This document shows positions 9,369 through 30,922 of a stretch of 64,000 nt of DNA, in pieces (positions within the stretch are counted from its first letter, which is position 1; each line of letters starts with the position of its first letter). The DNA lies in assembly GCA_964630205.1 (NCBI GenBank), contig CAZVTM010000005.1, positions 15,745 to 79,744 on the forward strand. The letters run 5' to 3'. The DNA is from an uncultured Helicobacter sp. GTDB lineage: Bacteria; Campylobacterota; Campylobacteria; Campylobacterales; UBA6016. A program made the position numbers and the translations under genes. Below the pieces are notes generated by a model. It searched no databases, had not been told where the DNA came from, and saw only the letters and a list, made by a program, of their open reading frames with translations.

Positions 9369-10709
9369 ATGAAACTATTTGGAACAGACGGAGTCAGAGG
9401 CAAAGCCGGAAAGGAACTTACCGTAAATACAGCCCTTCGGCTAGCAATGGCGGCAGGCATACACTTTAGAAAAACCTCTGTCACTAACAAAATTCTAATA
9501 GGCAAAGACACAAGAAGAAGCGGATATATGCTGGAAAATGCGATAGTTGCCGGTCTTACTGCCGTAGGCTATGACTGCGTACAGATAGGCCCTATGCCGA
9601 CACCGGCGATAGCTTTTTTAACGGAAGATATGAGATGCGACGCAGGAATAATGATAAGCGCCAGCCACAATGCATACTATGATAACGGAATAAAATTTTT
9701 TAATCACGAAGGCAATAAGCTAAACACAGACATAGAGGCGATGATAGAGGCACTTTATGCTGATAATGAAGCAATAGAGCTAGCGCAAAAAAAAGAGAGA
9801 GAGATAGGCTCTTCCAAAAGGATAGATGACGTTATCGGCAGATATATAGTCCACATCAAAAACTCTTTCCCAAAACACCTATCTTTAAAAGGAGTTAGAA
9901 TAGTTGTGGATGCGGCAAACGGAGCCGCCTACAAGGTAGCCCCTACGATACTATCTGAACTCGGCGCAGATCTAATAGTCATAAATGATGAGCCAAACGG
10001 ATTTAATATTAATGAGGAGTGCGGCGCTCTTCATCCCGCAAAGCTTTCAGAAGAGGTACTAAAGTTTAGGGCCGATATAGGATTTGCACTTGACGGCGAT
10101 GCAGACAGGCTTGTGGTAGTCGACGAAAAAGGAAATACGGTTAACGGCGATAAGCTGATAGCCGCACTCGCTTTGCATCTTGATTCACAAGGGCTTCTGA
10201 AAAAATCATCCGTAGTTGCAACAGTCATGAGCAACGGCGCCATGGAAGACTTTTTGGCATCCAAAAAAATAAAACTATTCAGGTGTAACGTCGGCGACAA
10301 ATACGTACTTGAGACAATGCAAAGAGAGGGGCTAAACTTCGGCGGGGAACAAAGCGGGCATATTATCTTCAGCGACTACGCCAAAACCGGTGACGGACTT
10401 GCGAGCGCGCTCCAAACAATAGCCTATGTGCTTTCCACCAAAAAGCCGGCAAGCGAGGCTTTAAATCTGTTTGAGCTTTATCCGCAAATTCAAGAGGCAA
10501 TAGCCGTCAAAACAAAAAAACCGCTTGACGAACTTGATGGCTTCAAAGAGAAAATAACAGACTTAGAAAACAAAAAAATAGCACATCTAATCAGATATTC
10601 CGGCACAGAAAACAAACTCAGGCTACTACTCGAAGGAAAAAGCGAAACAGCCCTCGTAAAAGAGATGGACTCTCTTGTGGAATACTTTAAAAAAGTTTTA
10701 AATGCTTAA
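9369..10709 (+). CDS. glmM: Phosphoglucosamine mutase
   Basis: [33 protein letters not shown]. Confidence 0.97.
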
Positions 10710-11136
10710 AAAAATAGTTTTTTTCATGCTTATCGCAGTATTTGCGATAGGCGCAGACCAATATATCAAATCAATTATCCTAGACGGCTACAGGTGGCAT
10801 AGCGATTATATCTCCATCATATACGTCCTAAACGAAGGCGTAGCTTTTAGTATGCTTTCATTTCTACAGGGATACTTAAAGTATTTGCAAATAGCGGTAC
10901 TGTTTTTCGCACTCATATACGTCTCCGCCAACGGATATCTTAAAAAATATCCGTTGGAGCTTGGGCTAATATTCGGCTCCGGGGCTTCAAATATATACGA
11001 TAGATTTATTCATGGCGGCGTTGTAGACTATATTTACTATCACCACTGGTTTGAATTTGCGGTATTCAATCTTGCGGATGTACTCATAGATATAGGGGTT
11101 TTACTGCTAATCATCAAGATTTTAAAGAAGAAATAA
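10702..11136 (+). CDS. lspA: Lipoprotein signal peptidase II
   Basis: [16 protein letters not shown]...[16 protein letters not shown]. Confidence 0.95.
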
Positions 11137-11168: not shown

Positions 11169-11244
11169 GGTCCCGTAGCTCAGTTGGTAGAGCACTACCT
11201 TGACATGGTAGTGGTCGTTGGTTCGAGTCCAATCGGGGCCACCA
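11169..11244 (+). tRNA. tRNA-Val(GAC)
   Basis: 76-nt cloverleaf GGTCCCG...CGGGGCC-ACCA; anticodon stem CTACC-TTGACAT-GGTAG; GTTCGA T-loop. Confidence 0.97.
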
Positions 11245-11272
11245 TTTTAAATACAATCCCACAAGGCAATAA

Positions 11273-13087
11273 TTGAAAGATATACTTGGCTATAAGCTAG
11301 AGGATCAAATCATAGATACTCAAAGCGCAGCGTCAGCTGACCCACAAAATCTGCAAGCAATACAATTTGACAACTCCAAAGAAGCATTAGAAATTATCAG
11401 GCACTCAACCGCCCATCTTATGGCAGAGGCTATAAAAGAGCTCTATCCTGATGCAAAATTTTTCGTAGGACCTACGGTTGACGAGGGTTTTTATTATGAT
11501 TTCAAAACTAGCGCAAAAATAGGCGAAGAAGAGCTGTCTGCTATCGAAAAGAAGATGAAAGAGCTAGCCGATAAGGCAAACGAGATAACTAAATATACTA
11601 TAACAAAAACAGAAGCTCTTAAGAAATTTGAAAACGATGAACTAAAACAAGAGGTTCTTAAAAAAATAGACTCCGACGAAATCAGTATATATTCGCAAGG
11701 CAATTTTGAAGACCTATGTCGTGGACCGCATGTACCAAATACAAAATATCTCAAAAATTTCAAGCTAATTAGAGTTGCAGGCGCATATCTAGGCGGCGAC
11801 GAGACAAAAGAGATGCTTACCCGTATATACGGTATCGCATTTGCCGATAAAGAGACACTCAAAAACTATGTAACAATGCTTGAAGAGGCAAAAAAGAGAG
11901 ACCATAGGAAAGTTGGGCACGAACTAGGTCTTTTTGCATTCGACGAAGACATCGGCAGCGGTATGCCTATATGGCTTCCTGCGGGTGCAAGGCTACGAGG
12001 GAAGCTAGAGAAGCTTCTCTATCATGCTCACCTAGTAAGAGGGTATGAACCGGTAAGAGGGCCTGAGATACTCAAGTCAGACCTTTGGAAAAAGAGCGGA
12101 CACTATCAAAACTACGGTCAAAATATGTACTTTACGAACATAGAAGAGGCCGAGTACGGTATCAAGCCGATGAACTGCCTAAGCCATATCAAGATATTCG
12201 ACTCCGAGACAAGGGGACATAAAGAGCTTCCTCTTAAATTCTTTGAGTTTGGCGTAGTGCATAGACACGAAAAAAGCGGCGTACTTCACGGGCTTTTGAG
12301 AGTTAGAGAGTTTACACAAGACGATGCGCATATATTTTGTACCGAGGCTCAGATAAAGTCTGAAATATATGAAGTTATGGACTTTGTGGACTCCATCATG
12401 AAGGCGTTTGACTTTAACTATTCGATAGAGCTGGCCACAAAGCCTCAAAAAGCGATAGGCTCCGACGAGTTTTGGGATAAGGCGACAAAAGCTATCGCGG
12501 ACGCCCTTGACGAAAAGGGAATGAAATACGATATAGATGAAGGCGGCGGTGCTTTCTACGGTCCAAAAATAGATGTAAAAATAACAGACTGTATCGGCAG
12601 GAAATGGCAATGCGGCACAATTCAAGTGGATTTGAATTTGCCGGATAGATTTGATATCAATTACACGGACGACAACAATCAGAGAGTTCGTCCCGTGATG
12701 ATACACAGAGCAATCATCGGTTCGTTTGAGAGATTTATAGCTATTTTGACGGAGCACTTCGGCGGAGAGTTCCCTTTCTTTATAGCTCCAACACAGGTGA
12801 TTTTGGTTCCAATCGGCGAAGCTCATATAGAATTTGCCAAAAAAATTCAAAAAGAGCTAATAAGAGCCGATATTTCCGTCAAAGTTTTTGATAAAAACGA
12901 CAGCTTAGGCAAGAAAATCAGAAACGCTGAAAAAGAGAGGGTACCTCTAATCGCCGTAATAGGTGACCAGGAAGTAGCCGAAAACAAAGTGGCGCTTAGA
13001 GATAGGCGTGAAAAAAAACAATACGAGATGGGTGTAAATGAATTCGTCGCATCACTTATTGCTAAAAATAATGGGGTATTTATTTGA
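11273..13087 (+). CDS. thrS: Threonine--tRNA ligase
   Basis: [52 protein letters not shown]. Confidence 0.98.
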
Positions 13088-13635
13088 GTAACAACAAAAA
13101 AGACGATGTGCTACTAAACGAGAGGATAAGGTTTGATGAAATCAGATGTGTCGGCGAAGATGGCGAACAACACGGCATTATAACTCCGCAAGAGGCTATG
13201 AAAATAGCAAACGAAAAGGGTCTTGATCTCGTACTAATCTCAGCAAACGCTAAGCCGCCCGTATGCAAGATAATGGACTACAGCAAGTTCAAATATCAAC
13301 AAGCAAAAAAAGCGAAAGAAGCGAAAAAAAAGCAAACAATTATTGAGATTAAAGAGATAAAGCTATCTCCAAAAATTGCACAAAACGACATTAACTACAA
13401 AATCAAACATGCAAGAGAGTTTCTGGAAGCCAAAAAACATGTACGCTTTAGGGTGTTCCTAAGCGGTAGAGAGATGGCAAATCCACAACTTGGCATAACG
13501 CTATTACTTCAAGTATACGAAATGGTAAAAGACATAGGCGATATGGAAAAAGATCCTATGTTTGAAGGCAGATATGTCAATATGACCGTACTCCCTAAAA
13601 AAACAGCCCCAAAAACCGCACAAGCCCCAGGATAA
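13084..13635 (+). CDS. infC: Translation initiation factor IF-3 (non-AUG start)
   Basis: [31 protein letters not shown] at 13084, with an in-frame ATT at 13078. Confidence 0.97.
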
Positions 13636-13656
13636 CAACCTTTATTTTTAATTAGA

Positions 13657-13696
13657 TATAATTTCGTCCCTAAAATCTGCCCTTCGGGGTGGGTTT
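13657..13696 (+). promoter_or_regulatory. Internal -10 box and 5'-UTR hairpin ahead of rpmI
   Basis: TATAAT at 13657-13662, then AAATCTGCCC-TTCG-GGGTGGGTTT (13673-13696) before the rpmI SD. Confidence 0.5.
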
Positions 13697-13717
13697 AATA
13701 TTTGCAAGGAGAGGCCG

Positions 13718-13909
13718 ATGCCGAAAATGAAAACGGTTAAGAGTGCGGCTAAGAGATTTAAAGTTAGAAAGTCCTCAATCAAAAGAGGTGCGGCATTTAG
13801 AAGCCACATTCTAACTAAAAAAAGCCCACAAAAAATAAGAAACCTAAAATCTCCAAAAACTGTACACAGCGCAAACATTGATTCCGTCAATGCAATGCTT
13901 TGTATGTAA
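13718..13909 (+). CDS. rpmI: 50S ribosomal protein L35
   Basis: [15 protein letters not shown]...[11 protein letters not shown]. Confidence 0.97.
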
Positions 13910-13935
13910 TCAATAGATTTTAGTAAGTAACTAGT

Positions 13936-13978
13936 CCCCCGAAAGACTTTAAATATCGGGCAAGTCCGCAAGAAGCGG
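13936..13978 (+). promoter_or_regulatory. Candidate structured leader (pseudoknot plus hairpin) upstream of rplT
   Basis: CCCCGA/TCGGGG stem; loop GACTT complementary to downstream AAGTC; CCGC-AAGAA-GCGG hairpin. Confidence 0.45.
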
Positions 13979-14014
13979 CACCTAAGTTAAAAACAATGGT
14001 AAAGGACCAATAAA

Positions 14015-14365
14015 ATGAGAGTAAAAACCGGCGTCGTAAGACGAAGAAGACATAAAAAAGTTCTAAAACTTGCTAGAGGTTTTTTTAGCGGTAGAAGAAA
14101 ACACTTCAGAAAAGCGAAAGAGCAGCTAGAAAGAAGCTTGTACTACGCTTTCAGAGACAGAAAACAGAAAAAAAGAGAGTTCAGAAAACTTTGGATAGTT
14201 AGAATCAATGCCGCTTGCAGACTAAACGGTATCAGCTACTCAAGATTCATCAACGGACTTCTTAAGGCAAACATCGAGCTTGACAGAAAAATCCTCGCAA
14301 ATATCGCAATGAACGAGCCTGAAACTTTCAAACAAATCGTAGAAAAAGCTAAAGCAGCTCTATAA
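14015..14365 (+). CDS. rplT: 50S ribosomal protein L20
   Basis: [15 protein letters not shown]...[21 protein letters not shown]. Confidence 0.98.
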
Positions 14366-18746: not shown

Positions 18747-18973
18747 TATAATTGCGGCTTTGATTTAGCTGTGTTACGATTTTATGCTGAAGCCTTATAA
18801 AATAGGGGTTTTTCATAAATCTTAAGCTTAGCTTAAATTGTACGGCTCTTTAAAATTTTGAAGATTTTTTTGGATTTTGTCACTTACCTGTAAAAAGTAT
18901 GTAGCAAAATTCAGGCAAATCTGGCTGCAGTCGTAGGTCCCTTAATATTAAGGGTTTTTTGCGGGTACACCCG
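18747..18973 (+). ncRNA. Candidate structured leader or sRNA upstream of the sequon-repeat lipoprotein
   Basis: TATAAT at 18747; long-range complementarity; palindromic hairpin CCCTTA-ATAT-TAAGGG plus T6; CGGG-TACA-CCCG hairpin. Confidence 0.35.
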
Positions 18974-18998
18974 TTCAATTTAAAATAAGGAAAACAAA

Positions 18999-19181
18999 AT
19001 GAAAAAAGTTCTAGTTGCTGCTCTTGTAATCGCAGGTCTTGCATTCTCTGGTTGTTCAAAAAAAGCTGAAGAAGCTAACGTAACTGAAGCTAACGCTACT
19101 GTAGAAGCTAACGTAACTGCACCAGTTGTAGAAGCTAACGCTACTGAAGCTAACGCTACTGAAGCTAACAAAAGCCACTAA
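18999..19181 (+). CDS. Small lipoprotein made of tandem E-A-N-x-T/S N-glycosylation sequons
   Basis: AAGGA SD; type II signal peptide with lipobox FSGC (Cys19); uniform codon use (GAA GCT AAC); own terminator. Confidence 0.88.
   Translation: MKKVLVAALVIAGLAFSGCSKKAEEANVTEANATVEANVTAPVVEANATEANATEANKSH
19071..19175 (+). repeat. Six copies of a 15-nt coding repeat GAAGCTAAC(GTA/GCT/AAA)(ACT/AGC)
   Basis: Read directly: units encode EANVT, EANAT, EANVT, EANAT, EANAT, EANKS, with short spacers V and APVV. Confidence 0.95.
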
Positions 19182-19189
19182 CAACTCTC

Positions 19190-19211
19190 GCTAAAGCCTT
19201 TTGGCTTTAGC
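19190..19211. terminator. Hairpin between the convergent lipoprotein and aroE genes
   Basis: Perfect GCTAAAGCC-TTTT-GGCTTTAGC. Confidence 0.75.
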
Positions 19212-19213
19212 AG

Positions 19214-19999
19214 TTAATTTACCGCATTTCTCATAACTTCAATATATTTTCTATCTATTTTTTTATCAACAAAAATCTCAAAAGCAAAAAATGCTTGCCA
19301 TATAAGCATATCCAATCCATTTCTTCTATCGACATGAAGCTCTGCTGCCAACTTCAAAAAAGGCGTCTCTTTATATATACAGTCATAAGCCAGTTTTGTC
19401 TTAGACAATAGTTTACGTAGCATATCCTTTTGCATAGGAAGCTCATCGTCAGTAAGTCCTGCGCTCGTAGTGTTTACCACCAAATCAAACTCTTTATCTA
19501 TATCTCCGTCCAGCGTAGACGTCGAAAATCCGTGTTGCTTGAAAAATTCGAGCCGTCCGGCACTTCTATTTAGTATAAGCGGCTCTATTCCGTTGGCACG
19601 CAAAGCAAAAGCTATTGCTCTTGCGGTACCGCCGGCACCAAGTATAACAGCGCTCTTGGGGTCAAGGGCTCCAAGCGAAGCCATAAATCCGGGCGCATCG
19701 GTATTGTAACCGTGAAGTTTTCCGTCTTTTAGGATTATAGTATTGACGGCTCCTATATTCTTTGCAAATTCATCTAAAAAGTCACAAGCATCAAAGGCGT
19801 CTTCTTTGAAAGGAACCGTAATATTAATACCACTTAAACCGAGCGATAAAAACTTCTCCGCAAGAAGCCTGCCGTCATGAAGTAAATATCTAGTATAGCA
19901 AGCATCCAAACCTAGCTGTCTATACAAGGAGTTGTGTAGCAAAGGGGATTTCGAATGGGAGACGGGGTTGCCAAAAAGGGCAAATAGCCTTTTATCCAA
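19214..19999 (-). CDS. aroE: Shikimate dehydrogenase
   Basis: FGNPVSHSKSP, NITVPFK, GAVNT, GYNTD, GAGGTARA, GLDMLIWQA. Confidence 0.96.
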   Translation of the reverse strand: MDKRLFALFGNPVSHSKSPLLHNSLYRQLGLDACYTRYLLHDGRLLAEKFLSLGLSGINITVPFKEDAFDACDFLDEFAKNIGAVNTIILKDGKLHGYNTDAPGFMASLGALDPKSAVILGAGGTARAIAFALRANGIEPLILNRSAGRLEFFKQHGFSTSTLDGDIDKEFDLVVNTTSAGLTDDELPMQKDMLRKLLSKTKLAYDCIYKETPFLKLAAELHVDRRNGLDMLIWQAFFAFEIFVDKKIDRKYIEVMRNAVN

Positions 20000-21401
20000 G
20001 ATTCTTTAAATCCTCAAAACTAGATATATTTGCGGCAAGTTTGTTTTTTATCTCTTTGAGCTCAAGCTCCGGTACGCTATCGGCTACAACTCCGGCCCCC
20101 GCCTGGAATATTATTTTATCTTTTTTGACTAGGGCAGTTCTGATCGTAATTGCGAAATCCATATTGCCGTCAAAGCCGAAATAGCCCACAGAGCCACTGT
20201 AAAAACCTCGTTTAACCCCTTCAAGATGCGCTATTATCTCCATTGCTTTTATTTTAGGTGCTCCGGTCATTGTTCCGGCTGTAAACGTCGCGCGAAAAAG
20301 ATCAAACATACTTTTATCGTCTTCAAGATTGCCGGTAACGTCACTAACCATGTGCATGACGTGAGAATACCTCTCAACACGCATTAATTCACCGACTTTT
20401 ACGGTAGAAGGCTTGCTCACCCTGCCAATATCATTTCTAGCAAGGTCGACTAGCATGATATGCTCGGCTCTCTCTTTTGGGTCGCTCAGCATTTCCGCTT
20501 CCATCTCCAAATCTTTTTGAATATCATACCCGCGCTTTCTGGTGCCCGCTATAGGACGAATAAGTATCTCACCATCCTCAAGCTTTATCATAACCTCCGG
20601 TGAGCTACCCGCTATACTAAAGTCATCAAACTCTAAAAAATACATATAAGGAGATGGATTTTTGGCTCTTAGGACACGGTAAAAGCTATACGCATCCACC
20701 TGTGCATCCACGGTAACCCTATTTGCTACCAATATTTGAAACACGTCCCCGGCGCGTATATGCTCTTTTGCCGATATTACCCCGGTTTTAAACTGTTCAT
20801 CACTAAGCATACTAACCGAGGAAAAACTACCCTTTGGCTTCACAAGCGGCAAAGTCGAATAGTCAGACAATAGCAGTTTGTGTATTTCATCCAAAGTAGC
20901 CTGAGGCATACATGTCGATAGCATTGTCAGCTTGCAACTCTTATGGGAATAGCCTATGACTATTTTTGGTCGCATCATGTAAAAATCAGGCGTATCCGTC
21001 TCATCGACCAAAGAGTCCATAGCATCTTTCAATACAGGCTCAAACTCTTTTATGATGTCATAACCGACAAAGCCGACAAAGCCGTCGACAAAGCCGAGGC
21101 CCGTCAATGCGGACATATCGGTATATTTTTTTGTGTCTATTTTTTTATAGTACTCTTCCAAAAAAGCCAGTGGCTCTATATTTGAAGCACTTTTGACACC
21201 ATACTCATCAGTATAGTCACATGTACCGTTTTTAAAAGAAAGCGATTCTCTTTCGCCTATAAATATATAACTGAAGTTTCCCAGTTCATTAACGGTCGCA
21301 CTCTCTAGTAAAAATATTCGTTCACCGTCAAAATGCTCTTTAAGCTTCGCATAAAACGCTATAGGGGTGAACTGGTCTATAAAAACTGATTTAAAATACA
21401 A
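19992..21401 (-). CDS. trpE: Anthranilate synthase component I
   Basis: [59 protein letters not shown]. Confidence 0.9.
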
Positions 21402-21403
21402 AA

Positions 21404-22312
21404 CTACCCTTTTATGATAAACGCATCATTCTTGATTTGCTCCCTAATTTTAGGAAGAGCTTTTGCGGCGTCTTCTTTGGAATCAAAAGGGCCAACCCAC
21501 ACCTTCGTTATATTCTTATCGTTTTTGACCGCTTGTTTTGTAGTTGAGCCGAAACCAACGGAATTTACCTTATCTCTAAGCCCTTTAGTAGCTGCTTCGC
21601 TTTCAAAATATCCGACTTGTACAAAGTAAGTCCCTGTTGGGGCTACCTTAGGTTTTGCTTCTGCTTGGGTAGCTTTTGGCTTTGTCTCTGGCTTAGGGGC
21701 TGTCTTTGTGACATTTTTAGTAGCCTCTTTAAATGCTTTTTTGACATCCTCTTTTTTTGGCTCTTCTTTTTTCACCTCTTCTTTAGGGGTCTTGGCAACA
21801 GACTGGGTAGCAGTCGCAGTTTTTATAGGGACGGATACAGCAGTCGTTTTTGGAGCAACTTGAACAGTTTGCGGCTGCGGCTGTGGTTGTTGCGCCGCTT
21901 GTTTGGTAGCTACCGGAACCTGCACTGGGATATTAGACGTCGGTTGGTCCGTTGCAGCGGCAGGTTGAGTATTTGTCGCTTGCGACTGTGCATCTTGTTG
22001 AAGTTTTTTAACTATAGCATTTAATTTTTCGTCCGCTATCGCATTTGCATCAGCAGGATGCGCGGTAGCGTTGGCGTTTTGTGCTATGGGCTGAACGGCG
22101 GCAACATATGGGATCTTCTTCATTTGCTCTGCGGCAGTTATAGGAAGAGGCTGCTTAGTCTCGGACGAACCCATAAACTTCATAATTCCGATAATAATAA
22201 AAAACAAAAGCAGTACGCCTGCGGCAATAAGGAAAAATTTTTTACTAGAGCTGCTCTCTTTTTGATTGCCTAAAAGCAGGTCGTTTAACTCGTTTTTATC
22301 ATCCATCTGCAT
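21404..22312 (-). CDS. SPOR-domain cell division protein (DedD/FtsN-like)
   Basis: N-terminal TM, low-complexity linker, C-terminal YFVQVGYF...VWVGPF SPOR domain. Confidence 0.85.
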   Translation of the reverse strand: MQMDDKNELNDLLLGNQKESSSSKKFFLIAAGVLLLFFIIIGIMKFMGSSETKQPLPITAAEQMKKIPYVAAVQPIAQNANATAHPADANAIADEKLNAIVKKLQQDAQSQATNTQPAAATDQPTSNIPVQVPVATKQAAQQPQPQPQTVQVAPKTTAVSVPIKTATATQSVAKTPKEEVKKEEPKKEDVKKAFKEATKNVTKTAPKPETKPKATQAEAKPKVAPTGTYFVQVGYFESEAATKGLRDKVNSVGFGSTTKQAVKNDKNITKVWVGPFDSKEDAAKALPKIREQIKNDAFIIKG

Positions 22313-22326
22313 TACCCCTTATTTAA

Positions 22327-22869
22327 TTATAAATGTTTTGACCAAGATGCGCCACGCTCTTTTTGATACAGCTCATAAGGCAAAGTCAGTATGTTGTACT
22401 CCGGCGGAATTTGATCATTTGGAAATACATTCCACTGAGTTGGCAGTCTCTGCCCCAGTTTCATAGAGAGGGTCTTTGCAAGGTGTATTCCCTCATGAAG
22501 CGTAGTATGCCCTTTATGAATATACAAATGCAAATGCCCCTCTGTTTTACTTTTATACGCGGTAAAGTTGATAAAACCTTCCTCGCGGAATAAAAGTTGT
22601 GCTCTATGCCAAAACCTCTCAGGGTCTCTCCCGTTATAATCGAAAACAATATTTTCTACTTTTTGGTTTGGCAAGATAAGAGAGTGGGCTACAGTAATCT
22701 TGCCGTCTTGATGATCACTCATGACTTGCATAGTAAGAGGCTTGTCTACTTTTTCAAATTTATTAAAATATGTTTTACCCTTAAATTCTAGCTTCTCGCT
22801 TCCAAGATCTTTTTTTTGCCAATAGTGCGTCGTGCACATCTTGATAAGTTTGATATCTACATTGTACAT
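22327..22869 (-). CDS. Conserved Campylobacterota protein (DUF1882-like)
   Basis: FINFTAYKSKTEGHLHLYIHKGHT; position between glyA and the SPOR gene. Confidence 0.75.
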   Translation of the reverse strand: MYNVDIKLIKMCTTHYWQKKDLGSEKLEFKGKTYFNKFEKVDKPLTMQVMSDHQDGKITVAHSLILPNQKVENIVFDYNGRDPERFWHRAQLLFREEGFINFTAYKSKTEGHLHLYIHKGHTTLHEGIHLAKTLSMKLGQRLPTQWNVFPNDQIPPEYNILTLPYELYQKERGASWSKHL

Positions 22870-22897
22870 CGGGCGCTATTTCCTTGAATGGTATTTT

Positions 22898-24145
22898 TTA
22901 ATATATCGCTCTATCGTAGATTACGAATTTAGACGCAAGCTCTTTCATTTTAGAGGCTATCTCTTTTTGTTTCGCTTCGTTATTTATATCATCAAAAACA
23001 TCGCATATTGCGTTTGCTATTATTTTGAATTCTTCTTCTTTCATCCCTCTAGCAGTCAAAGCAGGAGAGCCGATTCTGATACCACTTGTAACAAAAGGAC
23101 TTCTAGTTTCTCCTGGAACGGTATTTTTATTTACCGTAATTCCAGCGCGCCCTAGAGCTGCATCGGCGTCTTTACCGGAGAAGTCTTTGTTTAGAAGGCT
23201 TACGAGCACAAGATGCGAATCTGTACCGCCGGATACTATATCGTACCCTCTGTTTACCAAAATTTCCGCCAAAACCTTAATATTAGCCTTGACTTGCTTT
23301 GCATATGTTTTCCATTCAGGTTTTAGATTTTCGCCGAAACCTACCGCTTTTGCCGCCATGATGTGGACAAACGGACCGCCTTGCATTCCCGGGAATACCG
23401 CTTTGTTTATCTTGGTTGCTATCTCTTCGCTATTTGTCATTATCATACCACCTCTTGGACCTCTAAGAGTCTTGTGAGTAGTTGTGGTCACGATATCGGC
23501 ATACGGGAATGGGCTCGGATATTCGCCTGCCGCTATAAGTCCCGCATAATGGGCAATATCTGCAAAAAGCAGTGCGCCCACCGAATCGGCTATCTCTCTA
23601 AATCTTTTAAAATCAAGTTCTCTTGAGTATGCGCTTGCGCCACAAATAATCATCTTTGGTTTTACGATGTTTGCTATATCTTGAACTCTATCGTAGTTGA
23701 TGTATCCGTCGAGCTCTACGCCATATGAAAAGCTTTCATAGTTTTGACCGCTAAAATTTACTTTTGCGCCATGCGTAAGGTGTCCACCGTGAGATAAATC
23801 CATTCCAAGTATCTTGTCATAAGGGTTCAAAAGCGCGGTAAACACGGCTCCGTTTGCCTGTGAACCTGCATGCGGCTGTACGTTTGCATATGCGCAGCCA
23901 AAAAGCTCTTTTGCTCTATCTATCGCTAGTTGCTCTACCTCATCGGCAAATTCGCAACCGCCGTAATATCTTTTGTACGGATACCCTTCGGCATATTTGT
24001 TTGTAAAAATACTGCCGCTTGCCTCCATGACACTTGGGAACGTAAAATTTTCTGAAGCTATCATCTCAAGGTGGTGCGTTTGTCTATCAAGCTCTTTTTG
24101 CAATATGCCATAAACTTGTTTGTCGCTATTTTCCAAAAAACCCAT
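22898..24145 (-). CDS. glyA: Serine hydroxymethyltransferase
   Basis: [38 protein letters not shown]. Confidence 0.98.
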
Positions 24146-24159
24146 CTTTTATCCTTTAA

Positions 24160-25641
24160 TTAACTTAATCTTCTCATTGCCGGGAACAAAATAACATCCT
24201 TGATGGACTCTTGCCCGGTTAACAGCATCACCAACCTGTCGATACCGATACCTTGCCCTGCGGTCGGAGGCATCCCGTATTTGAGTGCCTCAACAAAATC
24301 CTCATCCATATCGTTTGCCTCTACGTTGCCGGCGGCCTTGGCCTCTACTTGCTTTTTAAATCTCTCGTATTGATCGATTGGGTCGTTAAGCTCATTAAAG
24401 CCGTTTGCGATTTCGCGTCCGGCAATGAATAGCTCAAATCTGTCGGTAATCTCCGGATTTTCTTCGCTTCTTTTGGCAAGCGGGGAAATCTCCACCGGAA
24501 AGCCCGTCACAAATGTAGGATTGACAAGTTTTTTCTCTACGAAATTATCAAATAGCTCCGCCAAAAGCTCGCCGTAGTTTGATTTTTCTTCAAACTCAAT
24601 CTCCTTTGATTTTAGGTACGCTTTGATGCTATCTCTGTCTTTTGTAGCCTCAGCAGGTACACCGCCGATCTCCGTCAAAGATTTTACATAGTCAACTCTG
24701 CTAAATTTCGCAAAATCAACGTCGTAATCGCCTATAGTTATTTGAGACGGGAGACCCAGACTCTCTATCAAATAGCCGAATAGCTTTTCGGTCAAATCCA
24801 TCAGATATTCGTAGTTTTTGTACGCCCTATAAAACTCAATCATCGTAAATTCAGGGTTATGCGTATGGTCAATACCCTCGTTTCTAAAACTTCTATTGAT
24901 TTCAAATACCGCTTCAAAACCGCCGACTATTAGTCTTTTGAGATAAAGCTCAGGGGCGATTCTGAGGTATCTATCTTCACCAAGTGCGTTGTGGTGAGTA
25001 ATGAACGGTCTAGCGGTAGCGCCGCCGGCTATCGGGTGAAGCATAGGAGTTTCAACCTCCAAAAACCCTTCATTTTCAAAAAAGCGTCTAACAAGACTTA
25101 CAACCTTGCTTCTCGTTTTTAGAGTATCAAGCACGTCTCTATTCATTATCAGGTCGAGATATCTCTGTCTATATCTTGTCTCCATGTCGGTTAGCCCATG
25201 GAATTTCTCTGGAAGTTGGTTGACCGCTTTTGTTAGTATCTCCATCTCACGCACATGCATAGTAAGCTCGCCCGTTTTGGTTACAAACGCATAACCGCTA
25301 ACTTCTATGATGTCACCTACTTCTGCTAGTTTAACCAGCTCTCCAAACCAATCGCCGAGGTCGTTTTTGGAGTAGTATATTTGGAGCACGCCAGATTCGT
25401 CTTCTATCTTCGCAAATGCCGCCTTACCCATAAGTCTAAGAAATTTTATTCTTCCGGCTACGGTGTAAATCTTATCGCTTTTTTTGTTTCCCTCTTCAAG
25501 GTCAAAAATGTATTGGTTATTATTTATAAATTCTGCGGTGCTAATATCTCTTTTTGAGAGCGAAGTGTATGGGTTTTTGCCCATCCTTCTTAGAGCTTCG
25601 GCTTTTTCTATCCTCTGCTGTGTATATATGTTGTCAAACAT
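24160..25641 (-). CDS. lysS: Lysine--tRNA ligase
   Basis: [51 protein letters not shown]. Confidence 0.98.
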
Positions 25642-25645
25642 TTAT

Positions 25646-26113
25646 TTAATTTTTCCCCTTCTCTTTTTGTTGGCACTCTTTACATATGCCGTGGAGTTGC
25701 ATCGCATGGTCTTTGATAAGAAACCCTTTTTTAGCGGCTTCTGCTTCTTGCAGCCTCTCTATCTCATCCGATTCAAATTCTATAATTTTCTCACACTCAT
25801 CACAAATCATGTGGTCGTGATGCTCTTTGACGTTTAGCTCGTATCTTTTGCCGTCCGCCCCAAACGAAATGCTAACTACAAATCCCTCTTGTTCAAAAAA
25901 GTTCAGAGCGCGGTATACCGTGGCTATACCGATGTTTTTGCCGCCCTCTTCTTTTTGCGTAAACGAAAGTATCTCCTCCGGCGTAAAATGCCCTTTATGT
26001 CTAAACATCGCCCGGATGATTACTTCTCTTTGCGTAGTATTTTTGAGGTTTTGTTCTTTTACCCTCTCTCTGAGTTTCGCTATTAGAGCATCGACCGATT
26101 TTTCTTTTGTCAT
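25646..26113 (-). CDS. fur: Ferric uptake regulator
   Basis: TTQRE, IGIATVYR, HHDHMIC, two CxxC motifs; cvpA-fur-lysS synteny. Confidence 0.92.
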   Translation of the reverse strand: MTKEKSVDALIAKLRERVKEQNLKNTTQREVIIRAMFRHKGHFTPEEILSFTQKEEGGKNIGIATVYRALNFFEQEGFVVSISFGADGKRYELNVKEHHDHMICDECEKIIEFESDEIERLQEAEAAKKGFLIKDHAMQLHGICKECQQKEKGKN

Positions 26114-26682
26114 TTTTTTGCACCCAATGTTTGATTTATCTCTTTGGTAGCTTCCTTTACGGCCTCTTCTTTAACTCTGTCAGTGATGGTGGAGGCATTC
26201 AAATCTTCCGGTTTTAGTTTCATGACAAAACTGCCCGTAGCTTTCATCGGCTCAAACATAAAACTGTCTTTCGTAAACCCTTCCAGCTTGCTTTGCAAAA
26301 GCGAAATATTGGAAAGGGCAAAAACGATAACGGAGAGTATCAAAAATATCTTTCCGCCGGCGGCCGCAAATCCTAGTATCTTATCGGCAATACCCATACC
26401 ACTCATATCTACCGCCTTTGAAACAAGCGAAGCGGCAAATGTGATACCAAACCAAATAATCGCAAAAAGGGCAATAAACGCCACAACCGAAGCCGTGGTG
26501 GCACTTTGTAAATTAAACATGGAGGTAAACAAATCGGCCAAAGAAGATGAAAATCTGGATGCCAAAAAAATTCCGCCGACTATCGCGGCCAAACCCGCTA
26601 TTTCTTTGATAAAACCGTGCAGAAAACCTTTTAGCCCGAGCGCAAAAACCAAAAATAAAACAACTATGTCGAGCGTGCTCAT
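26110..26682 (-). CDS. cvpA: CvpA (colicin V production) family membrane protein
   Basis: LDIVVL...KGFLHGFIKE, DKILGF; start at MSTLD. Confidence 0.85.
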   Translation of the reverse strand: MSTLDIVVLFLVFALGLKGFLHGFIKEIAGLAAIVGGIFLASRFSSSLADLFTSMFNLQSATTASVVAFIALFAIIWFGITFAASLVSKAVDMSGMGIADKILGFAAAGGKIFLILSVIVFALSNISLLQSKLEGFTKDSFMFEPMKATGSFVMKLKPEDLNASTITDRVKEEAVKEATKEINQTLGAKK

Positions 26683-26765
26683 GTAAGCCTTGTTCCTGTT
26701 TTGTGAGTGCCGAAATTGTACCGCCTTAATCATAAAAAAAACATTTTTTGTCTACAATAAAAGCC

Positions 26766-27815
26766 ATGTCAAGAGTAACTAAACAAGAAGCATTGGACCT
26801 TTTGCGCAACTCCCCTCTTTTGGAGCTAGGCAAACGAGCGTACGAAGTCAAACAACAACTGCACAAAGACAAAATAACAACTTTTATCGTCGATAGAAAT
26901 ATAAATTACACAAATATCTGCAACGCAGGGTGTAAATTTTGCGCATTCAAGCGTGGTGTCAACGACGAGGACGGCTATGTGCTAGACCTTGAGGTAATAT
27001 CGCAAAAGATAGAGGAGCTGATAGCCATAGGCGGTACTCAAATACTCTTTCAAGGCGGCGTACACCCGAAACTCAAGATAGATTATTATGAAGAGCTAAC
27101 CGAGTATATTCATACGAAGTTCCCGCAGATTACGATACACGGATTTTCGGCGGCGGAGATAGCATATATCGCAAAAGTCTCTGAGATTAGCGAAAAAGAT
27201 GTGCTTCTGCGGCTTCAAGAAAAAGGGCTATCTTCAATCCCAGGCGCCGGAGCCGAGATACTAGTCGATAGAGTGCGAAATATCATCTCCCCAAACAAGC
27301 AAAACACCGAAGGGTGGCTGGGCATCCACAAGGCAGCTCACGAGATAGGGATGAGGACGACGGCTACGATGATGTTTGGCTCTGTCGAAACGGACGAGGA
27401 GATAGTAGAGCATCTAGATAGGTTAAGGCAGCTTCAAGATGAAACGGGTGGCTTTCGGGCGTTTATCCTCTGGTCTTTTCAGCCGGACAACACTCCGCTT
27501 TTCAAAGAGTATCCGAATATCACGAAGGCGACTTCAAATAGATATTTACGGATTTTGGCACTCTCTAGACTATATCTGGACAACTTCAAAAACCTGCAAA
27601 GCTCATGGGTGACGCAGGGTTCACATATCGGGCAGACGGCTCTGTTTTTTGGGGCAAACGACATGGGGAGCACTATGATGGAAGAGAACGTCGTAGCGGC
27701 AGCGGGAGCGGCAAACCGCATGGCAGAGGATGAGATAGTCCGTCTTATCAAAGATGCGGGAGAGATACCGGCAAAGCGCAACACGGCGTATGAAATTCTA
27801 AAAGTTTACGAATGA
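26766..27815 (+). CDS. mqnC: Cyclic dehypoxanthinyl futalosine synthase (radical SAM)
   Basis: NINYTNICNAGCKFCAF (CxxxCxxC), SIPGAGAEIL, SSWVTQG, GANDMGSTMMEENVV. Confidence 0.92.
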   Translation: MSRVTKQEALDLLRNSPLLELGKRAYEVKQQLHKDKITTFIVDRNINYTNICNAGCKFCAFKRGVNDEDGYVLDLEVISQKIEELIAIGGTQILFQGGVHPKLKIDYYEELTEYIHTKFPQITIHGFSAAEIAYIAKVSEISEKDVLLRLQEKGLSSIPGAGAEILVDRVRNIISPNKQNTEGWLGIHKAAHEIGMRTTATMMFGSVETDEEIVEHLDRLRQLQDETGGFRAFILWSFQPDNTPLFKEYPNITKATSNRYLRILALSRLYLDNFKNLQSSWVTQGSHIGQTALFFGANDMGSTMMEENVVAAAGAANRMAEDEIVRLIKDAGEIPAKRNTAYEILKVYE

Positions 27816-29095
27816 AAAAAATCCTATTTTTAATATTTACTCAAGGTTTATTAATGGCTAACACACTTTTGCATTTAGACATAGGCGGGGTAAAAGTGCC
27901 CGTTATATTTGAAGAGGACAGGTCGCTTCCGACACTTAGTCTAAAGGTCGTATTTTTGGATGCGGGCTCGATAAAAGACGGTGACAAAAGCGGTATATCC
28001 AAGCTCTCTTTTCGCCTTTTAAATGAGGGGACAAAAAAACTAGGCTCTACTAAATTTGCGACGCTTCTTGACGAAAAAGCTATCAAGCTCTCGGCGTATA
28101 GCGGTTTTGAGACGGCCGGTATAGAATTTTCATGCCTAAAAGAATATGCGGATGAGGCGGTACGACTGACAAAAGATTTGTTAAAAGACCCAAACTATTC
28201 CGAAGAAGCGCTCTCAAAAATCAAACTAATTACAGCCTCTCAAATAGCCAAAAGAGAGGATGACTTCGACCATGTGGCGGATGCGGCTCTAAAAAAAGAG
28301 ATATTCAAATCGACCCCACTAGAAAACGACCCTCTGGGCACAAAAGAGAGTGTAGCCGGCATATCTCTGTCGGACGTAAAAGCATTCATTTCAAGCAATA
28401 TCACACTGGCAAATAGCGTTGTAGTTATAGGCGGAGATATAGACAAAAACGAAGCATTCACGTATGCAAAAGTGATACTAGACGGGCTCGCCAAAGGGGC
28501 AAAGAACCAAAAAGACGAATACTTTGATGCAAAAAGTTCAGCCAAAGAGATAAAAATCAAGAAAAAAACAGAGCAAGCATACATATATTTCGGCGCACCC
28601 GCAAATATCAAAGCCGCCGACAAAGACGCATACAAGGCAAGGCTTGCGGGCTTTATTCTAGGCTCAAGCGGTTTCGGAAGTCGCCTTATGGAGATAATCA
28701 GGGTAAAAAACGGGCTTGCGTACTCTGCGTACGGCAGGTTCAATCTATCAAAAACGCACTCGTATTTTAGTGGATACCTGCAAACAAAGCCGCAAAACGA
28801 AGAAAAGGCAAAAGAACTTGTCAAAAAAATTATAGAGGAATTTGTAAAGGATGGGGCTACCCAAAAAGAGCTTGACGGAGCAAAAAACTTCATACTAGGA
28901 AGCGAACCGCTCAGAGCCGAAACATTGTCACAAAGGCTCTCAAGAAGCTTTAATGAGTTTTATTTGGGGCAGAAACTAGGATATCACAAAGAAGAGCTGG
29001 AGCTAATCAAAAATACCACCCTAAAAGAGCTAAACGATTTTATCAAATCGCATCCGGAGATCACAAACTTAACAGTATCCGTAGTTACAAAATAG
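27812..29095 (+). CDS. M16 (pitrilysin) family peptidase-like subunit, no HxxEH seen
   Basis: LLNEGT, GSSGFGSRLMEIIRVKNGLAYS; mqnC-M16-recG synteny. Confidence 0.85.
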   Translation: MKKILFLIFTQGLLMANTLLHLDIGGVKVPVIFEEDRSLPTLSLKVVFLDAGSIKDGDKSGISKLSFRLLNEGTKKLGSTKFATLLDEKAIKLSAYSGFETAGIEFSCLKEYADEAVRLTKDLLKDPNYSEEALSKIKLITASQIAKREDDFDHVADAALKKEIFKSTPLENDPLGTKESVAGISLSDVKAFISSNITLANSVVVIGGDIDKNEAFTYAKVILDGLAKGAKNQKDEYFDAKSSAKEIKIKKKTEQAYIYFGAPANIKAADKDAYKARLAGFILGSSGFGSRLMEIIRVKNGLAYSAYGRFNLSKTHSYFSGYLQTKPQNEEKAKELVKKIIEEFVKDGATQKELDGAKNFILGSEPLRAETLSQRLSRSFNEFYLGQKLGYHKEELELIKNTTLKELNDFIKSHPEITNLTVSVVTK

Positions 29096-30922
29096 ATGTT
29101 TTTTGAGCGTGCGGACGAGGAGAAGATAAAAAAACTAGGCATCCTATCTCTCCTCGACCTTGCCCTGCATATACCCCAAAAATACGAGGATTTCACCCTT
29201 GGCAAACCTCTAGCTGATAACGAATTTTGCGCGATAGAGTGTGAGGTGATAGGCAAACAATGGACGCCGAAAACCCTGCAATTTGACCTGACCCTCCCAT
29301 CATACGGCGGGAAACACCTAAAAGCGGTCTTTTTCTCCCCAAAAAGATATCAGCAAAACATTTTTTCAGTAGGTGAAAAGCTTTATCTTTACGGCAAAGT
29401 ATCACTCTTCCCACTTCCGTCAATCATCCACCCAAAAAAAATAACCGCGATAGGTGAAATAAACAAAATCTATACGGCGGGGGCGCAAAACAAAACCTAC
29501 AAACTTCTGGCCGAAAAATACATCACAAAAGAGGCTTTGACGGATGAGGGGTTAGACGTCAAAACCGCAGAGGATATACTCTCCCTGCACTTTCCAAAAA
29601 ATATATCACAGCTTTACGAAAACGGCTCTTTAAAGCCCCAGGTATTGGATAGCCTCAAAAAAGCGGAGATATTCGCCTATCTAAAACTCCTCGCCACAAA
29701 AAAAACAGAGCTTCCAGCAGAGGCTATCAAGCCCGCAAATGAAAACGAGTTTTTAAAGCAACTCCCCTTCGCCCCGACAAACGACCAAATAGCGGCTATA
29801 AAAGCTTGTAAAGAGGACATCCAAAAAAACATACAGGCAAAAAGGGTGATAGTAGGCGATGTGGGTTGCGGCAAAACTACAGTCATACTAGCTCTAGCCT
29901 TTATGAACAAGGGCGGCAAGACGGTGGTACTAGCGCCTACCTCGATACTCGCAAACCAGATATACGAAGAGGCGGTAAAGTATCTGCCTATGCGAAGCAT
30001 ACTGGTCACCGGGGCAAGTCGTGCAAAAGACACTGAGATAGCGGCGGCAGATTTTATCGTCGGGACGCACGCACTTCTTTATAAAAAACTCCCAAAATGC
30101 GAAATCCTAGTGGTGGACGAACAGCATAGATTTGGGACAAACCAAAGACACCTCATATCAAAGCTAGTCAGCGACGGGGCATTGCGGCCGCACTACTTCC
30201 AGTTTTCCGCCACGCCGATACCGAGAACTCAAGCTCTCATAGAGGCGACCATAGCCGACATCACAATGATAAAAGAGATGCCGATACAAAAAGATATTCA
30301 GACTCACATCATCTCAAAAGAGGGGTTCAAAGAGCTTTTTGCGCATATCAAATCAGAGGTAGAAAGGGGTTTTCAGGCGGCGGTCATCTATCCGCTAGTC
30401 GAAAAGAGCGACACCGCCTCATATATGTCTCTTGAGGAGGCGGAGGATTTTTGGCGCAAGCACTTTAAGAAGGTATTTGTCACGCACGGCAAAGACGGTG
30501 CAAAAGAAGATGTGTTCCGTGAGTTCAAAGAGGGTGGTGAACTCATCATCTCAACCACGGTAATGGAGGTCGGTATCAGCCTCCCAAAGCTCTCTACAAT
30601 AGTCATCGTAGGCGCTGAAAAACTAGGACTTGCGAGCCTACATCAGCTAAGAGGCAGAGTCGCCAGAAACACACCGAAAGGATGGTGCTATCTATATACA
30701 AAAGACGCCGCCAATGAAAGGCTAAAAAAATTTGCCGCTACAAAAAGCGGTTTTGACATTGCGGAGCTGGATCTACAATACAGAGATTCCGGCGACCTAC
30801 TTACAGGGAGGGAGCAAAGCGGGCGACAGTTTCGGTGGTTTAATATCAAAACGGACGAAAAAATAGCGAGAGAGGCTAGAGGGCTTTTGTCGGATTTTTT
30901 AATGCGCGGGGCTGTAAAATAA
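29096..30922 (+). CDS. recG: ATP-dependent DNA helicase RecG
   Basis: GDVGCGKT, APTSILANQ, VDEQHRFG, SATPIPRT, LHQLRGRVAR. Confidence 0.95.
   Translation: MFFERADEEKIKKLGILSLLDLALHIPQKYEDFTLGKPLADNEFCAIECEVIGKQWTPKTLQFDLTLPSYGGKHLKAVFFSPKRYQQNIFSVGEKLYLYGKVSLFPLPSIIHPKKITAIGEINKIYTAGAQNKTYKLLAEKYITKEALTDEGLDVKTAEDILSLHFPKNISQLYENGSLKPQVLDSLKKAEIFAYLKLLATKKTELPAEAIKPANENEFLKQLPFAPTNDQIAAIKACKEDIQKNIQAKRVIVGDVGCGKTTVILALAFMNKGGKTVVLAPTSILANQIYEEAVKYLPMRSILVTGASRAKDTEIAAADFIVGTHALLYKKLPKCEILVVDEQHRFGTNQRHLISKLVSDGALRPHYFQFSATPIPRTQALIEATIADITMIKEMPIQKDIQTHIISKEGFKELFAHIKSEVERGFQAAVIYPLVEKSDTASYMSLEEAEDFWRKHFKKVFVTHGKDGAKEDVFREFKEGGELIISTTVMEVGISLPKLSTIVIVGAEKLGLASLHQLRGRVARNTPKGWCYLYTKDAANERLKKFAATKSGFDIAELDLQYRDSGDLLTGREQSGRQFRWFNIKTDEKIAREARGLLSDFLMRGAVK

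Follow-up and report, generated by a model that had tools for sequence, protein, structure and literature searches.

A putative small lipoprotein of uncultured Campylobacterales whose mature chain is an array of candidate PglB acceptor sites

Bacterial N-glycosylation is usually described as the addition of glycans to one or a few positions of folded periplasmic and membrane proteins, and its purpose is debated: stability, protease protection and free oligosaccharide have all been proposed. Engineered C-terminal tags such as the 4x DQNAT 'GlycTag' are short flexible tandem sequons that act as multi-site acceptors of PglB. Here we describe a natural locus of comparable layout, a 60-codon open reading frame (ORF) in a 64,000-nucleotide stretch of contig CAZVTM010000005.1 from an uncultured Helicobacter sp. 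assembly; this whole stretch is called the window. The predicted product is a lipoprotein with a 42-residue mature chain in which every Asn lies in an extended PglB sequon. With moderate confidence we lean towards the reading that this product is an N-glycan carrier, its mature chain serving as an array of optimal PglB acceptor sites.

The Campylobacter jejuni lipoprotein JlpA has two glycosylation sites. It is a surface-exposed N-glycosylated lipoprotein (Cj0983; PMC4061916) and thus resembles the proposed product in being both a lipoprotein and a PglB substrate, but it is folded, has a mass of about 42 kDa and does not consist of sequons only. The N-terminal repeat of Cj1433c from C. jejuni NCTC 11168, known as the 'GlycoTag', shares with the window protein its natural tandem extended sequons (DLNNT). 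This natural 9x KIDLNNT array acquires up to nine N-glycans in glyco-competent E. coli, on average 3-4 (Nothaft et al. 2016, PMC4879521), its PglB-dependent loading having been seen as a fusion in E. coli only. Going by its description, the Cj1433c array differs from the window protein in its 7-residue unit, in its apparently unrelated sequence and in being part of a larger protein that is not a lipoprotein. A sequence-only reading of the window, which knew of no characterised protein of this design, had overlooked this array. Multi-site loading of tandem sequons is feasible, as the up to nine glycans on the Cj1433c array show. The 4x DQNAT GlycTag follows the same design logic as the window protein, but it is synthetic and has no lipid anchor. 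A search of the literature and of curated families found no description of lipoproteins made only of sequons.

The ORF and its parts are the following (window coordinates).

18999..19181, plus strand: coding sequence of the putative sequon-array lipoprotein precursor, ATG to TAA with the stop codon included, 60 codons, MKKVLVAALVIAGLAFSGCSKKAEEANVTEANATVEANVTAPVVEANATEANATEANKSH
18999..19055, plus strand: predicted type II signal peptide (residues 1-18) and lipidated Cys19 (codon 19053-19055), lipobox F-S-G-C
19071..19175, plus strand: six E-A-N-x-T/S sequons in GAAGCTAAC-NNN-ACT units, interrupted by short inserts such as V and APVV

The predicted signal peptide consists of the n-region MKK, a 13-residue hydrophobic core, VLVAALVIAGLAF, and the lipobox F-S-G-C19. 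Basic n-region, h-region and lipobox satisfy the lipoprotein pattern; the assignment comes from this pattern, the Pfam profile hidden Markov model LPAM_1 scoring 10.6 bits on the 60-residue protein, below its cut-off of 20. The mature chain has a mass of 4.29 kDa and a pI of 4.6, and ends in K-S-H, not in a terminal Lys. All six of its Asn residues (27, 32, 38, 47, 52 and 57) lie within E-A-N-x-T/S. The residues at x are, in order, V, A, V, A, A and K, with Pro at none, and all six sites satisfy the extended PglB sequon D/E-X1-N-X2-S/T (X not Pro). Direct reading of 18999..19181 therefore bore out the lipoprotein signal and the six sequons proposed for it. The sequon units are encoded as GAA GCT AAC NNN ACT/AGC, the first three codons being uniform in all six; Tandem Repeats Finder reported a period of 15, 6.6 copies at 19071-19169, 68% matches and 13% indels. 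The claim of a 15-nt repeat with uniform codons thus holds for the codons, whereas the array as a whole is interrupted because of the in-frame V, APVV and similar inserts.

This clustering of sequons goes beyond chance. Per 1000 residues, the lipoprotein has 100 extended sequons and the 62 long window ORFs have 1.16, a difference of about 87-fold, and only 2.7% of the Asn residues in the long ORFs are in extended sequons, as opposed to six of six here. Among 200,000 composition-preserving shuffles of the mature chain none had six sequons; the maximum was four. None of the frames in 777 kb of DNA flanking 80 metagenomic pglB genes contained three or more sequons within 40 residues. Other exported proteins of the window showed no pattern of sequon enrichment, the sites being few (23). 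Among credible window genes the highest sequon density after the mini-lipoprotein was found in a CvpA homologue (26110-26733, minus strand), which has two extended sequons near its C-terminus (DLNAS and EINQT); a SPOR protein (21404-22312, minus strand) has one, DKNIT.

The first homologue search yielded 29 homologues of 57-70 residues. Together with the window protein these make 30 close relatives, in which 143 of the 144 mature-chain Asn residues lie within D/E-x-N-x-S/T, the exception being a C-terminal Asn. A profile search added 36 further sequon-type mini-lipoproteins, many with quite different signal peptides; their leaders include MKYLLPLAIALVFTACN..., MMKIVSALLLAAMFIGCSES... (one from a Sulfuricurvum sp. 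metagenome-assembled genome, MAG), MKKLIGGLVVVSVLFLGC... and MKHVLFTLLAGLMLTAVITGC..., and 164 of their 172 Asn residues are in the extended sequon. In total, at least 66 mini-lipoproteins from uncultured Campylobacterales have 307 of 316 mature-chain Asn residues in D/E-x-N-x-S/T. Over the 307 sites, position -2 is E or D only, and position +2 is T in 299 and S in 8. The flanking positions vary: A, T, V, M, E, K, Q, H, S or G at -1 and A, V, K, T, M, E or S at +1. The commonest core is N-A-T. The codons vary as well, those of a copy carried by phages (see below) differing from the window gene: GAAGTAAACGCAACA. Homologues keeping the repeat without the acidic -2 or the S/T at +2, which the sequence-only reading had named among the observations that would refute its proposal, were not encountered across the 66 members.

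Sequon-free proteins from the same profile search served as a control. Most of its Ala/Pro/Glu-rich small lipoproteins are without any sequon, including both named hits from outside the Campylobacterota (P0422 from Flavobacterium and P0443 from Dysgonamonadaceae). The 55 profile hits with at most one sequon contain 59 Asn residues and 11 sequons in total, and one of the hits, P0465, is built of E-A-N-A-P repeats, with nine Asn residues and no sequon. These comparisons support the view that the extended PglB sequon, and not merely the repeat, is what is conserved across the family. Because lineages with different leaders, codons and spacers agree, the sequon appears to be under selection across the family, the pattern being the one expected for a PglB acceptor motif.

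The composition of the sites can be compared with what is known of the enzyme. The optimal PglB peptide is DQNAT, with Thr preferred over Ser at +2 (PMC8479172), and most of the epsilonproteobacterial PglBs tested require an acidic residue at -2 (PMC4894442). With N-A-T as the commonest core, Thr in large excess over Ser and the acid at -2 fixed, the family sites match this known specificity. The same features bear on whether another system modifies the chain, by O-glycosylation of Thr or by a cytoplasmic N-glycosyltransferase of the NGT type. The Thr residues are as regular as the Asn residues, and NGT-type enzymes also use N-x-S/T (PMC6025236); the acidic -2 residue is nonetheless required by PglB-type enzymes and not by NGT or O-oligosaccharyltransferases (PMC4894442), and it is present in 307 of 307 sequons. 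No enzyme of either kind came to light, although no search was aimed at one. We regard modification by such a system as quite improbable.

The question of whether the ORF is translated at all was addressed by comparing seven diverged loci. In codons 1-22 there are 68 synonymous and 6 non-synonymous pairwise codon differences, and length differences in the repeat region are always multiples of three, so that the frame is kept. The lipobox is conserved in 66 of 66 members, with G18 and C19 invariant in the 23-26 members aligned. Gene callers annotated the exact protein on at least 23 contigs, from NCBI MAGs and from Logan assemblies, on which the neighbours of its gene are always a class-V aminotransferase gene on one side and aroE on the other; the suggestion that it is short enough to be skipped by annotation is thereby contradicted. 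In 11 same-species contigs from different samples the DNA of the coding sequence is 100% identical, against 1-9 differences in the 300 nt upstream. Repeat number had been thought tunable; what varies is the sequon number between species, from 0 to 9, and a contingency locus, with repeat-number variation within the species, was rejected on the same identity of the 11 contigs. The relatives are named 'hypothetical protein' at NCBI and, in two cases, 'outer membrane murein-binding lipoprotein Lpp' at JGI; the latter name is wrong.

The conserved elements around the ORF are listed below.

18747..18756, plus strand: TGTATAAT, a -10-like box, invariant in the seven diverged loci, 243 nt before the ATG
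18757..18962, plus strand: conserved, apparently structured region of about 205 nt with three stem-loops, from alignment conservation and folding
18987..18991, plus strand: Shine-Dalgarno sequence AAGGA, 7 nt before the ATG, invariant in the seven loci
19190..19211, plus strand: terminator-like hairpin GCTAAAGCC-TTTT-GGCTTTAGC of 9 bp, 9 nt after the stop codon

The TGTATAAT box is the sole strong promoter-like element upstream of the ORF. The region that follows it has a single-sequence folding z-score of -2.15, and the RNAalifold consensus contains 54 pairs, 9 of them with compensatory changes. According to a terminator scan, the last stem-loop, which ends 38 nt before the ATG, comprises a hairpin (18939-18954) and, directly after it, a U-run (18955-18960). 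Rfam gave this conserved RNA no match that reached the gathering threshold, and nothing but noise when the limit was relaxed to E <= 10. We consider 18757..18962 a candidate 5' leader or small RNA. Since no promoter was found between the upstream hairpin and the Shine-Dalgarno sequence, and none fits there, the ORF is probably transcribed through the terminator-like structure, which would make the region either a leader that attenuates transcription or a small RNA subject to read-through. Downstream, the hairpin at 19190..19211 separates the ORF from the convergent aroE, whose stop codon is at 19214; its stem is conserved, and its T-run is weak in the window and clearer in relatives. Of the 'own SD and terminator' ascribed to the gene, the invariant AAGGA and the conserved hairpin stand, with the reservations that the T-run is weak here and that no promoter of the gene's own lies past the upstream hairpin.

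These elements also provide what can be said for an untranslated ORF, a chance frame across a DNA or RNA repeat beside the conserved upstream RNA element. Compatible with such a frame are the small size of the ORF, the candidate structured RNA directly upstream and the fact that the repeat opens frames on both strands: two antisense ORFs (18980..19171 and 19056..19184, both minus strand) overlap the coding sequence and are by-products of the repeat. A spurious ORF was rejected on the synonymous bias, the frame-keeping indels, the invariant Shine-Dalgarno sequence and the lipobox conserved in all members, observations which leave that explanation hardly any probability. That the ORF is a translated lipoprotein gene is highly likely in our judgement. 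The lipoprotein-processing enzyme LspA (Peptidase_A8) is encoded in the window at 10702-11136 and is thus present in the organism.

Structure prediction agreed with the absence of a folded domain anticipated from the sequence. AlphaFold2, run with the family alignment, gave a mean pLDDT of 52, and the sole helix comprised residues 3-14 of the signal peptide; the mature chain had pLDDT values below 50 and no secondary structure. The mature chain is thus predicted to be disordered and flexible, and exposed once exported. No Pfam or NCBIfam model reaches its cut-off on the 60-residue protein. The sub-threshold scores, none of which confers membership, were as follows.

PG1828 family, NF050142: 30.4 bits, cut-off 50, not a member
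Ag473 family, NF047840: 23.6 bits, cut-off 100, not a member
Lpp/OprI, NF040598: 19.2 bits, cut-off 43, not a member

Neisseria Ag473 and Porphyromonas PG1828 are tiny lipoproteins like the window protein, Ag473 having short tandem repeats as well, but neither has sequons and the weak matches rest mainly on the signal peptide. Braun lipoprotein Lpp and OprI are likewise small and Ala-rich, with a type II signal peptide and a basic residue near the C-terminus; they differ by a trimeric coiled-coil helix, which is not predicted for the window protein, and by a terminal Lys, which it lacks. An Lpp/OprI alanine zipper was rejected on the score of 19.2 against 43 bits, the lack of a predicted helix past the signal peptide and the K-S-H terminus.

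The repeat itself raised the possibility of a pentapeptide-repeat beta-helix, formed by the six A-N-x-T-E units, since A(D/N)LXX proteins also give 'EANLT' strings. A search of viral contigs for tandem E-[AV]-N-x-T did match mostly pentapeptide-repeat proteins, e.g. ...ANLTEANLTGADLT.... The window protein, on the other hand, has no match to Pfam Pentapeptide (PF00805) even at E <= 1, and its central residue is A, V, K or T and not L or F. Its six units, broken by inserts, amount to less than two coils, while the class needs at least eight uninterrupted units, and the AlphaFold2 model is disordered. On these grounds (no Pfam match, wrong central residue, few and interrupted units, no predicted fold) the pentapeptide-repeat fold was rejected; it would be most surprising if it were correct. 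Tandem E-A-N-L-T strings from IMG/VR (L047-L081) were mostly pentapeptide-repeat proteins and giant-virus low-complexity repeats, so a search for bare repeated sequons needs a lipobox or signal-peptide filter.

Several observations weigh against the N-glycan carrier. First, pglB was not found near the gene. The motif WWDxG is absent from the six frames of the 64-kb window, in which there is no pgl gene, and from the six frames of the loci of the first 24 relatives (L001-L024); the gene calls of the later family loci include no STT3/PF02516 protein. Nor were pgl genes found past the ends of the window, over 7.5 kb at one and about 5 kb at the other, and there was no linkage of pglB and mini-lipoprotein genes within +-10 kb (seven distinct mini-gene contexts; 80 pglB genes). 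In other metagenomic Campylobacterota pglB lies about 6 kb from mqnE-M16 peptidase-recG (L091, L098) or 5-9 kb from infC-rpmI-rplT (L102, L121, L146, L150), whereas the window's mqnE-recG (26748-30922) and infC-rpmI-rplT (13084-14365) are both without adjoining pgl genes. Second, the sequons are only five residues apart and may not all be occupied, the GlycoTag with its 7-residue spacing having averaged 3-4 of nine. Third, about 80% of the sites have Ala at -1 and codon use is uniform, so that repeat amplification accounts for part of the regularity and the sites cannot be counted as independent events. Fourth, there are relatives with one sequon or none (L018, L020, P0404, P0441 and P0447).

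Apart from these loci, PglB homologues are widespread in environmental Campylobacterota. PglB has been reported from Sulfurimonas, Nitratiruptor, Sulfurovum, Wolinella and three Helicobacter species (PMC4894442 and PMC6025236), and the literature search found no paper tying PglB to Sulfuricurvum. With C. jejuni PglB as the query against 5.8 billion proteins, only Campylobacter was among the matches listed. We obtained 310 PglB-type clusters (50%-identity representatives, E < 1e-30), about 30-40% identical to one another, of which the few that carry a name belong to 'Campylobacteraceae bacterium', 'Helicobacteraceae bacterium' and 'Wolinella sp.' MAGs. A metagenome scan confirmed at least 572 PglB stretches, none from the window lineage among the matches listed. 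The presence of PglB in the window lineage is suggested by the sequon pattern itself.

The sequon-poor relatives define the scaffold on which the array was built. The number of sequons in the family ranges from 0 to 9, with two or three in Arcobacter-like members and 5-7 in the clade of the window protein. L018 (L018:10001-10192) has one sequon and L020 (L020:10001-10213) has no Asn, its chain reading ...AAAPVDAAAPAAAPVK; both are low-GC relatives that keep the signal peptide and have an Ala/Pro/Val/Glu-rich chain with a terminal Lys. The scaffold is a short disordered Ala/Pro/Glu-rich lipoprotein on which sequons were multiplied in some lineages, and the existence of sequon-poor relatives means that it has a function not needing sugars.

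It may accordingly be asked whether the window protein is itself an unglycosylated disordered spacer or tether, possibly Lpp-like through its C-terminal basic residue, with EANxT as a recent low-complexity amplification. In favour of such a tether are the relatives that share the leader, have at most one Asn and carry an AP-rich chain ending in Lys (L018, L020, P0404), the sequon-free P0441 and P0447, which are members of a related MKKLIGG/MKKLISG group that has a leader of its own, and the occurrence of AP-rich mini-lipoproteins in other phyla too. Most family members end in K, two are called 'Lpp' by JGI, the uniform codons and the mostly Ala -1 position speak for amplification, and pglB was not found in the window or the family loci. 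Against such a tether, 307 of 316 Asn residues lie in the extended sequon across differing leaders, codons and -1/+1 residues, and a repeat variant lacking the S/T or the acid, which exists elsewhere (P0465), was not seen in Campylobacterota. The Lpp likeness in turn meets the score of 19.2 against 43 bits, the lack of a predicted helix and the K-S-H end of the window protein. We consider an unglycosylated tether rather unlikely, although it has more in its favour than the other alternatives.

If the window protein is an N-glycan carrier, its biogenesis may be pictured as follows. The precursor would be exported by Sec, Lgt would add diacylglycerol to Cys19, and LspA would cut after Gly18. With the chain tethered at the inner membrane, PglB would move the undecaprenyl-pyrophosphate-linked N-glycan onto some or all of Asn27, 32, 38, 47, 52 and 57. 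By the E. coli sorting rule, the Ser at +2 would then direct the protein to the outer membrane via Lol. Lipid-anchored and bearing as many as six N-glycans, the product would amount to a natural 'GlycoTag' fixed to a lipid, and it would add bound carbohydrate to the envelope. The N-glycan of C. jejuni is about 1.4 kDa; with a glycan of that size and full occupancy, the 4.3 kDa peptide would bear about 8 kDa of sugar. Site occupancy, localisation and physiological role, like the presence of PglB in the lineage, are inferred. The most likely role would be a hydrated or protective glycan layer or the masking of envelope structures, but our confidence in any specific role is low, and spacer, glycan sink or phage/protease shield functions are speculation.

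A gene for a protein of the same design is carried by phages. P0427 (L043:10001-10171; also L044-L046) is a protein of 56 residues with a lipobox and five D/E-x-N-x-T sites. It occurs in exact form on 24 contigs, and those examined are phage genomes, with genes for a T7-type RNA polymerase, a large terminase with a LAGLIDADG insertion, a virion structural protein, an exonuclease and an SU10-like adaptor. The gene is a stand-alone small lipoprotein gene placed between tRNA-Thr(tgt) and tRNA-Pro/Gln. Neither protein nor profile searches found copies of the P0427 type in IMG/VR. At L043:10197-10297 assembly across the repeat has left an artefact, an N-run scaffold gap flanked by a duplicated 3' end of the P0427 gene.

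The host envelope is where small phage lipoproteins usually act, e.g. in superinfection exclusion or as spanins. T5 Llp, Cor and the o-spanins are, like P0427, small phage lipoproteins, but none of them is known to be a sequon array, and they have no sequence similarity to it. The phage copy is the only functional hint, and it fits an envelope-masking role without proving one. A broader proposal would be that environmental Campylobacterota make dedicated N-glycan display scaffolds, mostly carbohydrate and forming a layer like a lipoglycan or O-antigen, in several independent lineages, that one aroE-convergent slot has persisted long enough for its signal peptide to be exchanged, and that phages captured the design, plausibly for remodelling of the host surface as in superinfection exclusion. 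We put this forward tentatively, as possible but doubtful.

The window has a G+C content of 41.7%. For its L35, S20, IF3, RF1 and serine hydroxymethyltransferase (SHMT), the 90%-identity clusters hold only Campylobacterales or Campylobacteraceae MAGs, and the nearest PDB structures for PurA and SHMT are those of C. jejuni, closer than those of H. pylori. The lineage belongs to uncultured Campylobacterales and is without a close cultured relative. In a scan of genome collections the mini-lipoprotein gene was found in MAGs only, labelled Campylobacterales, Helicobacteraceae, Campylobacteraceae, 'Helicobacter' and Arcobacter.

The mini-lipoprotein gene is a stand-alone unit, convergent with the following gene string.

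19214-26733, minus strand: cvpA-fur-lysS-glyA-DUF1882-SPOR protein-pabB-aroE

In relatives the gene is found after sucD (L022), folE (L164), the BatD gene (L166) and an RND efflux operon (L040, Sulfuricurvum MAG). P0411, from a more distant lineage (L037:10001-10180), has the leader MKYLLPLAIALVFTACN..., unrelated to that of the window protein, and occupies the same aroE-convergent slot, facing aroE-pabB-SPOR-DUF1882-glyA-lysS-fur-cvpA. The same slot with an unrelated signal peptide indicates that the slot is older than the leader sequence. The string appears to resemble C. jejuni Cj0399-Cj0405, in which aroE is followed by a convergent 'putative lipoprotein', Cj0406c; the latter may be a positional counterpart in a cultured, PglB-positive species. 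Elsewhere in the window, the H. pylori antisense RNA HPnc0260 has an Rfam match at gathering level (11206-11320, minus strand; 65 bits, cut-off 59), which overlaps tRNA-Val (11169-11244, plus strand) just upstream of thrS.

If the window protein is an N-glycan carrier, it would serve as a compact natural reporter of PglB activity and of the rules of sequon spacing, and as a natural lipid-anchored multi-glycan scaffold for glycoconjugate engineering. The family would also be a genomic marker: across the phylum, sequon number would be expected to vary with the presence of PglB and with its specificity. Through the copy on phages, a link between N-glycans and phage-host interactions becomes testable. 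For the biology of these bacteria it would mean that the glycan itself can be the product, with the protein merely its carrier, and that this extends to non-pathogenic uncultured Campylobacterota.

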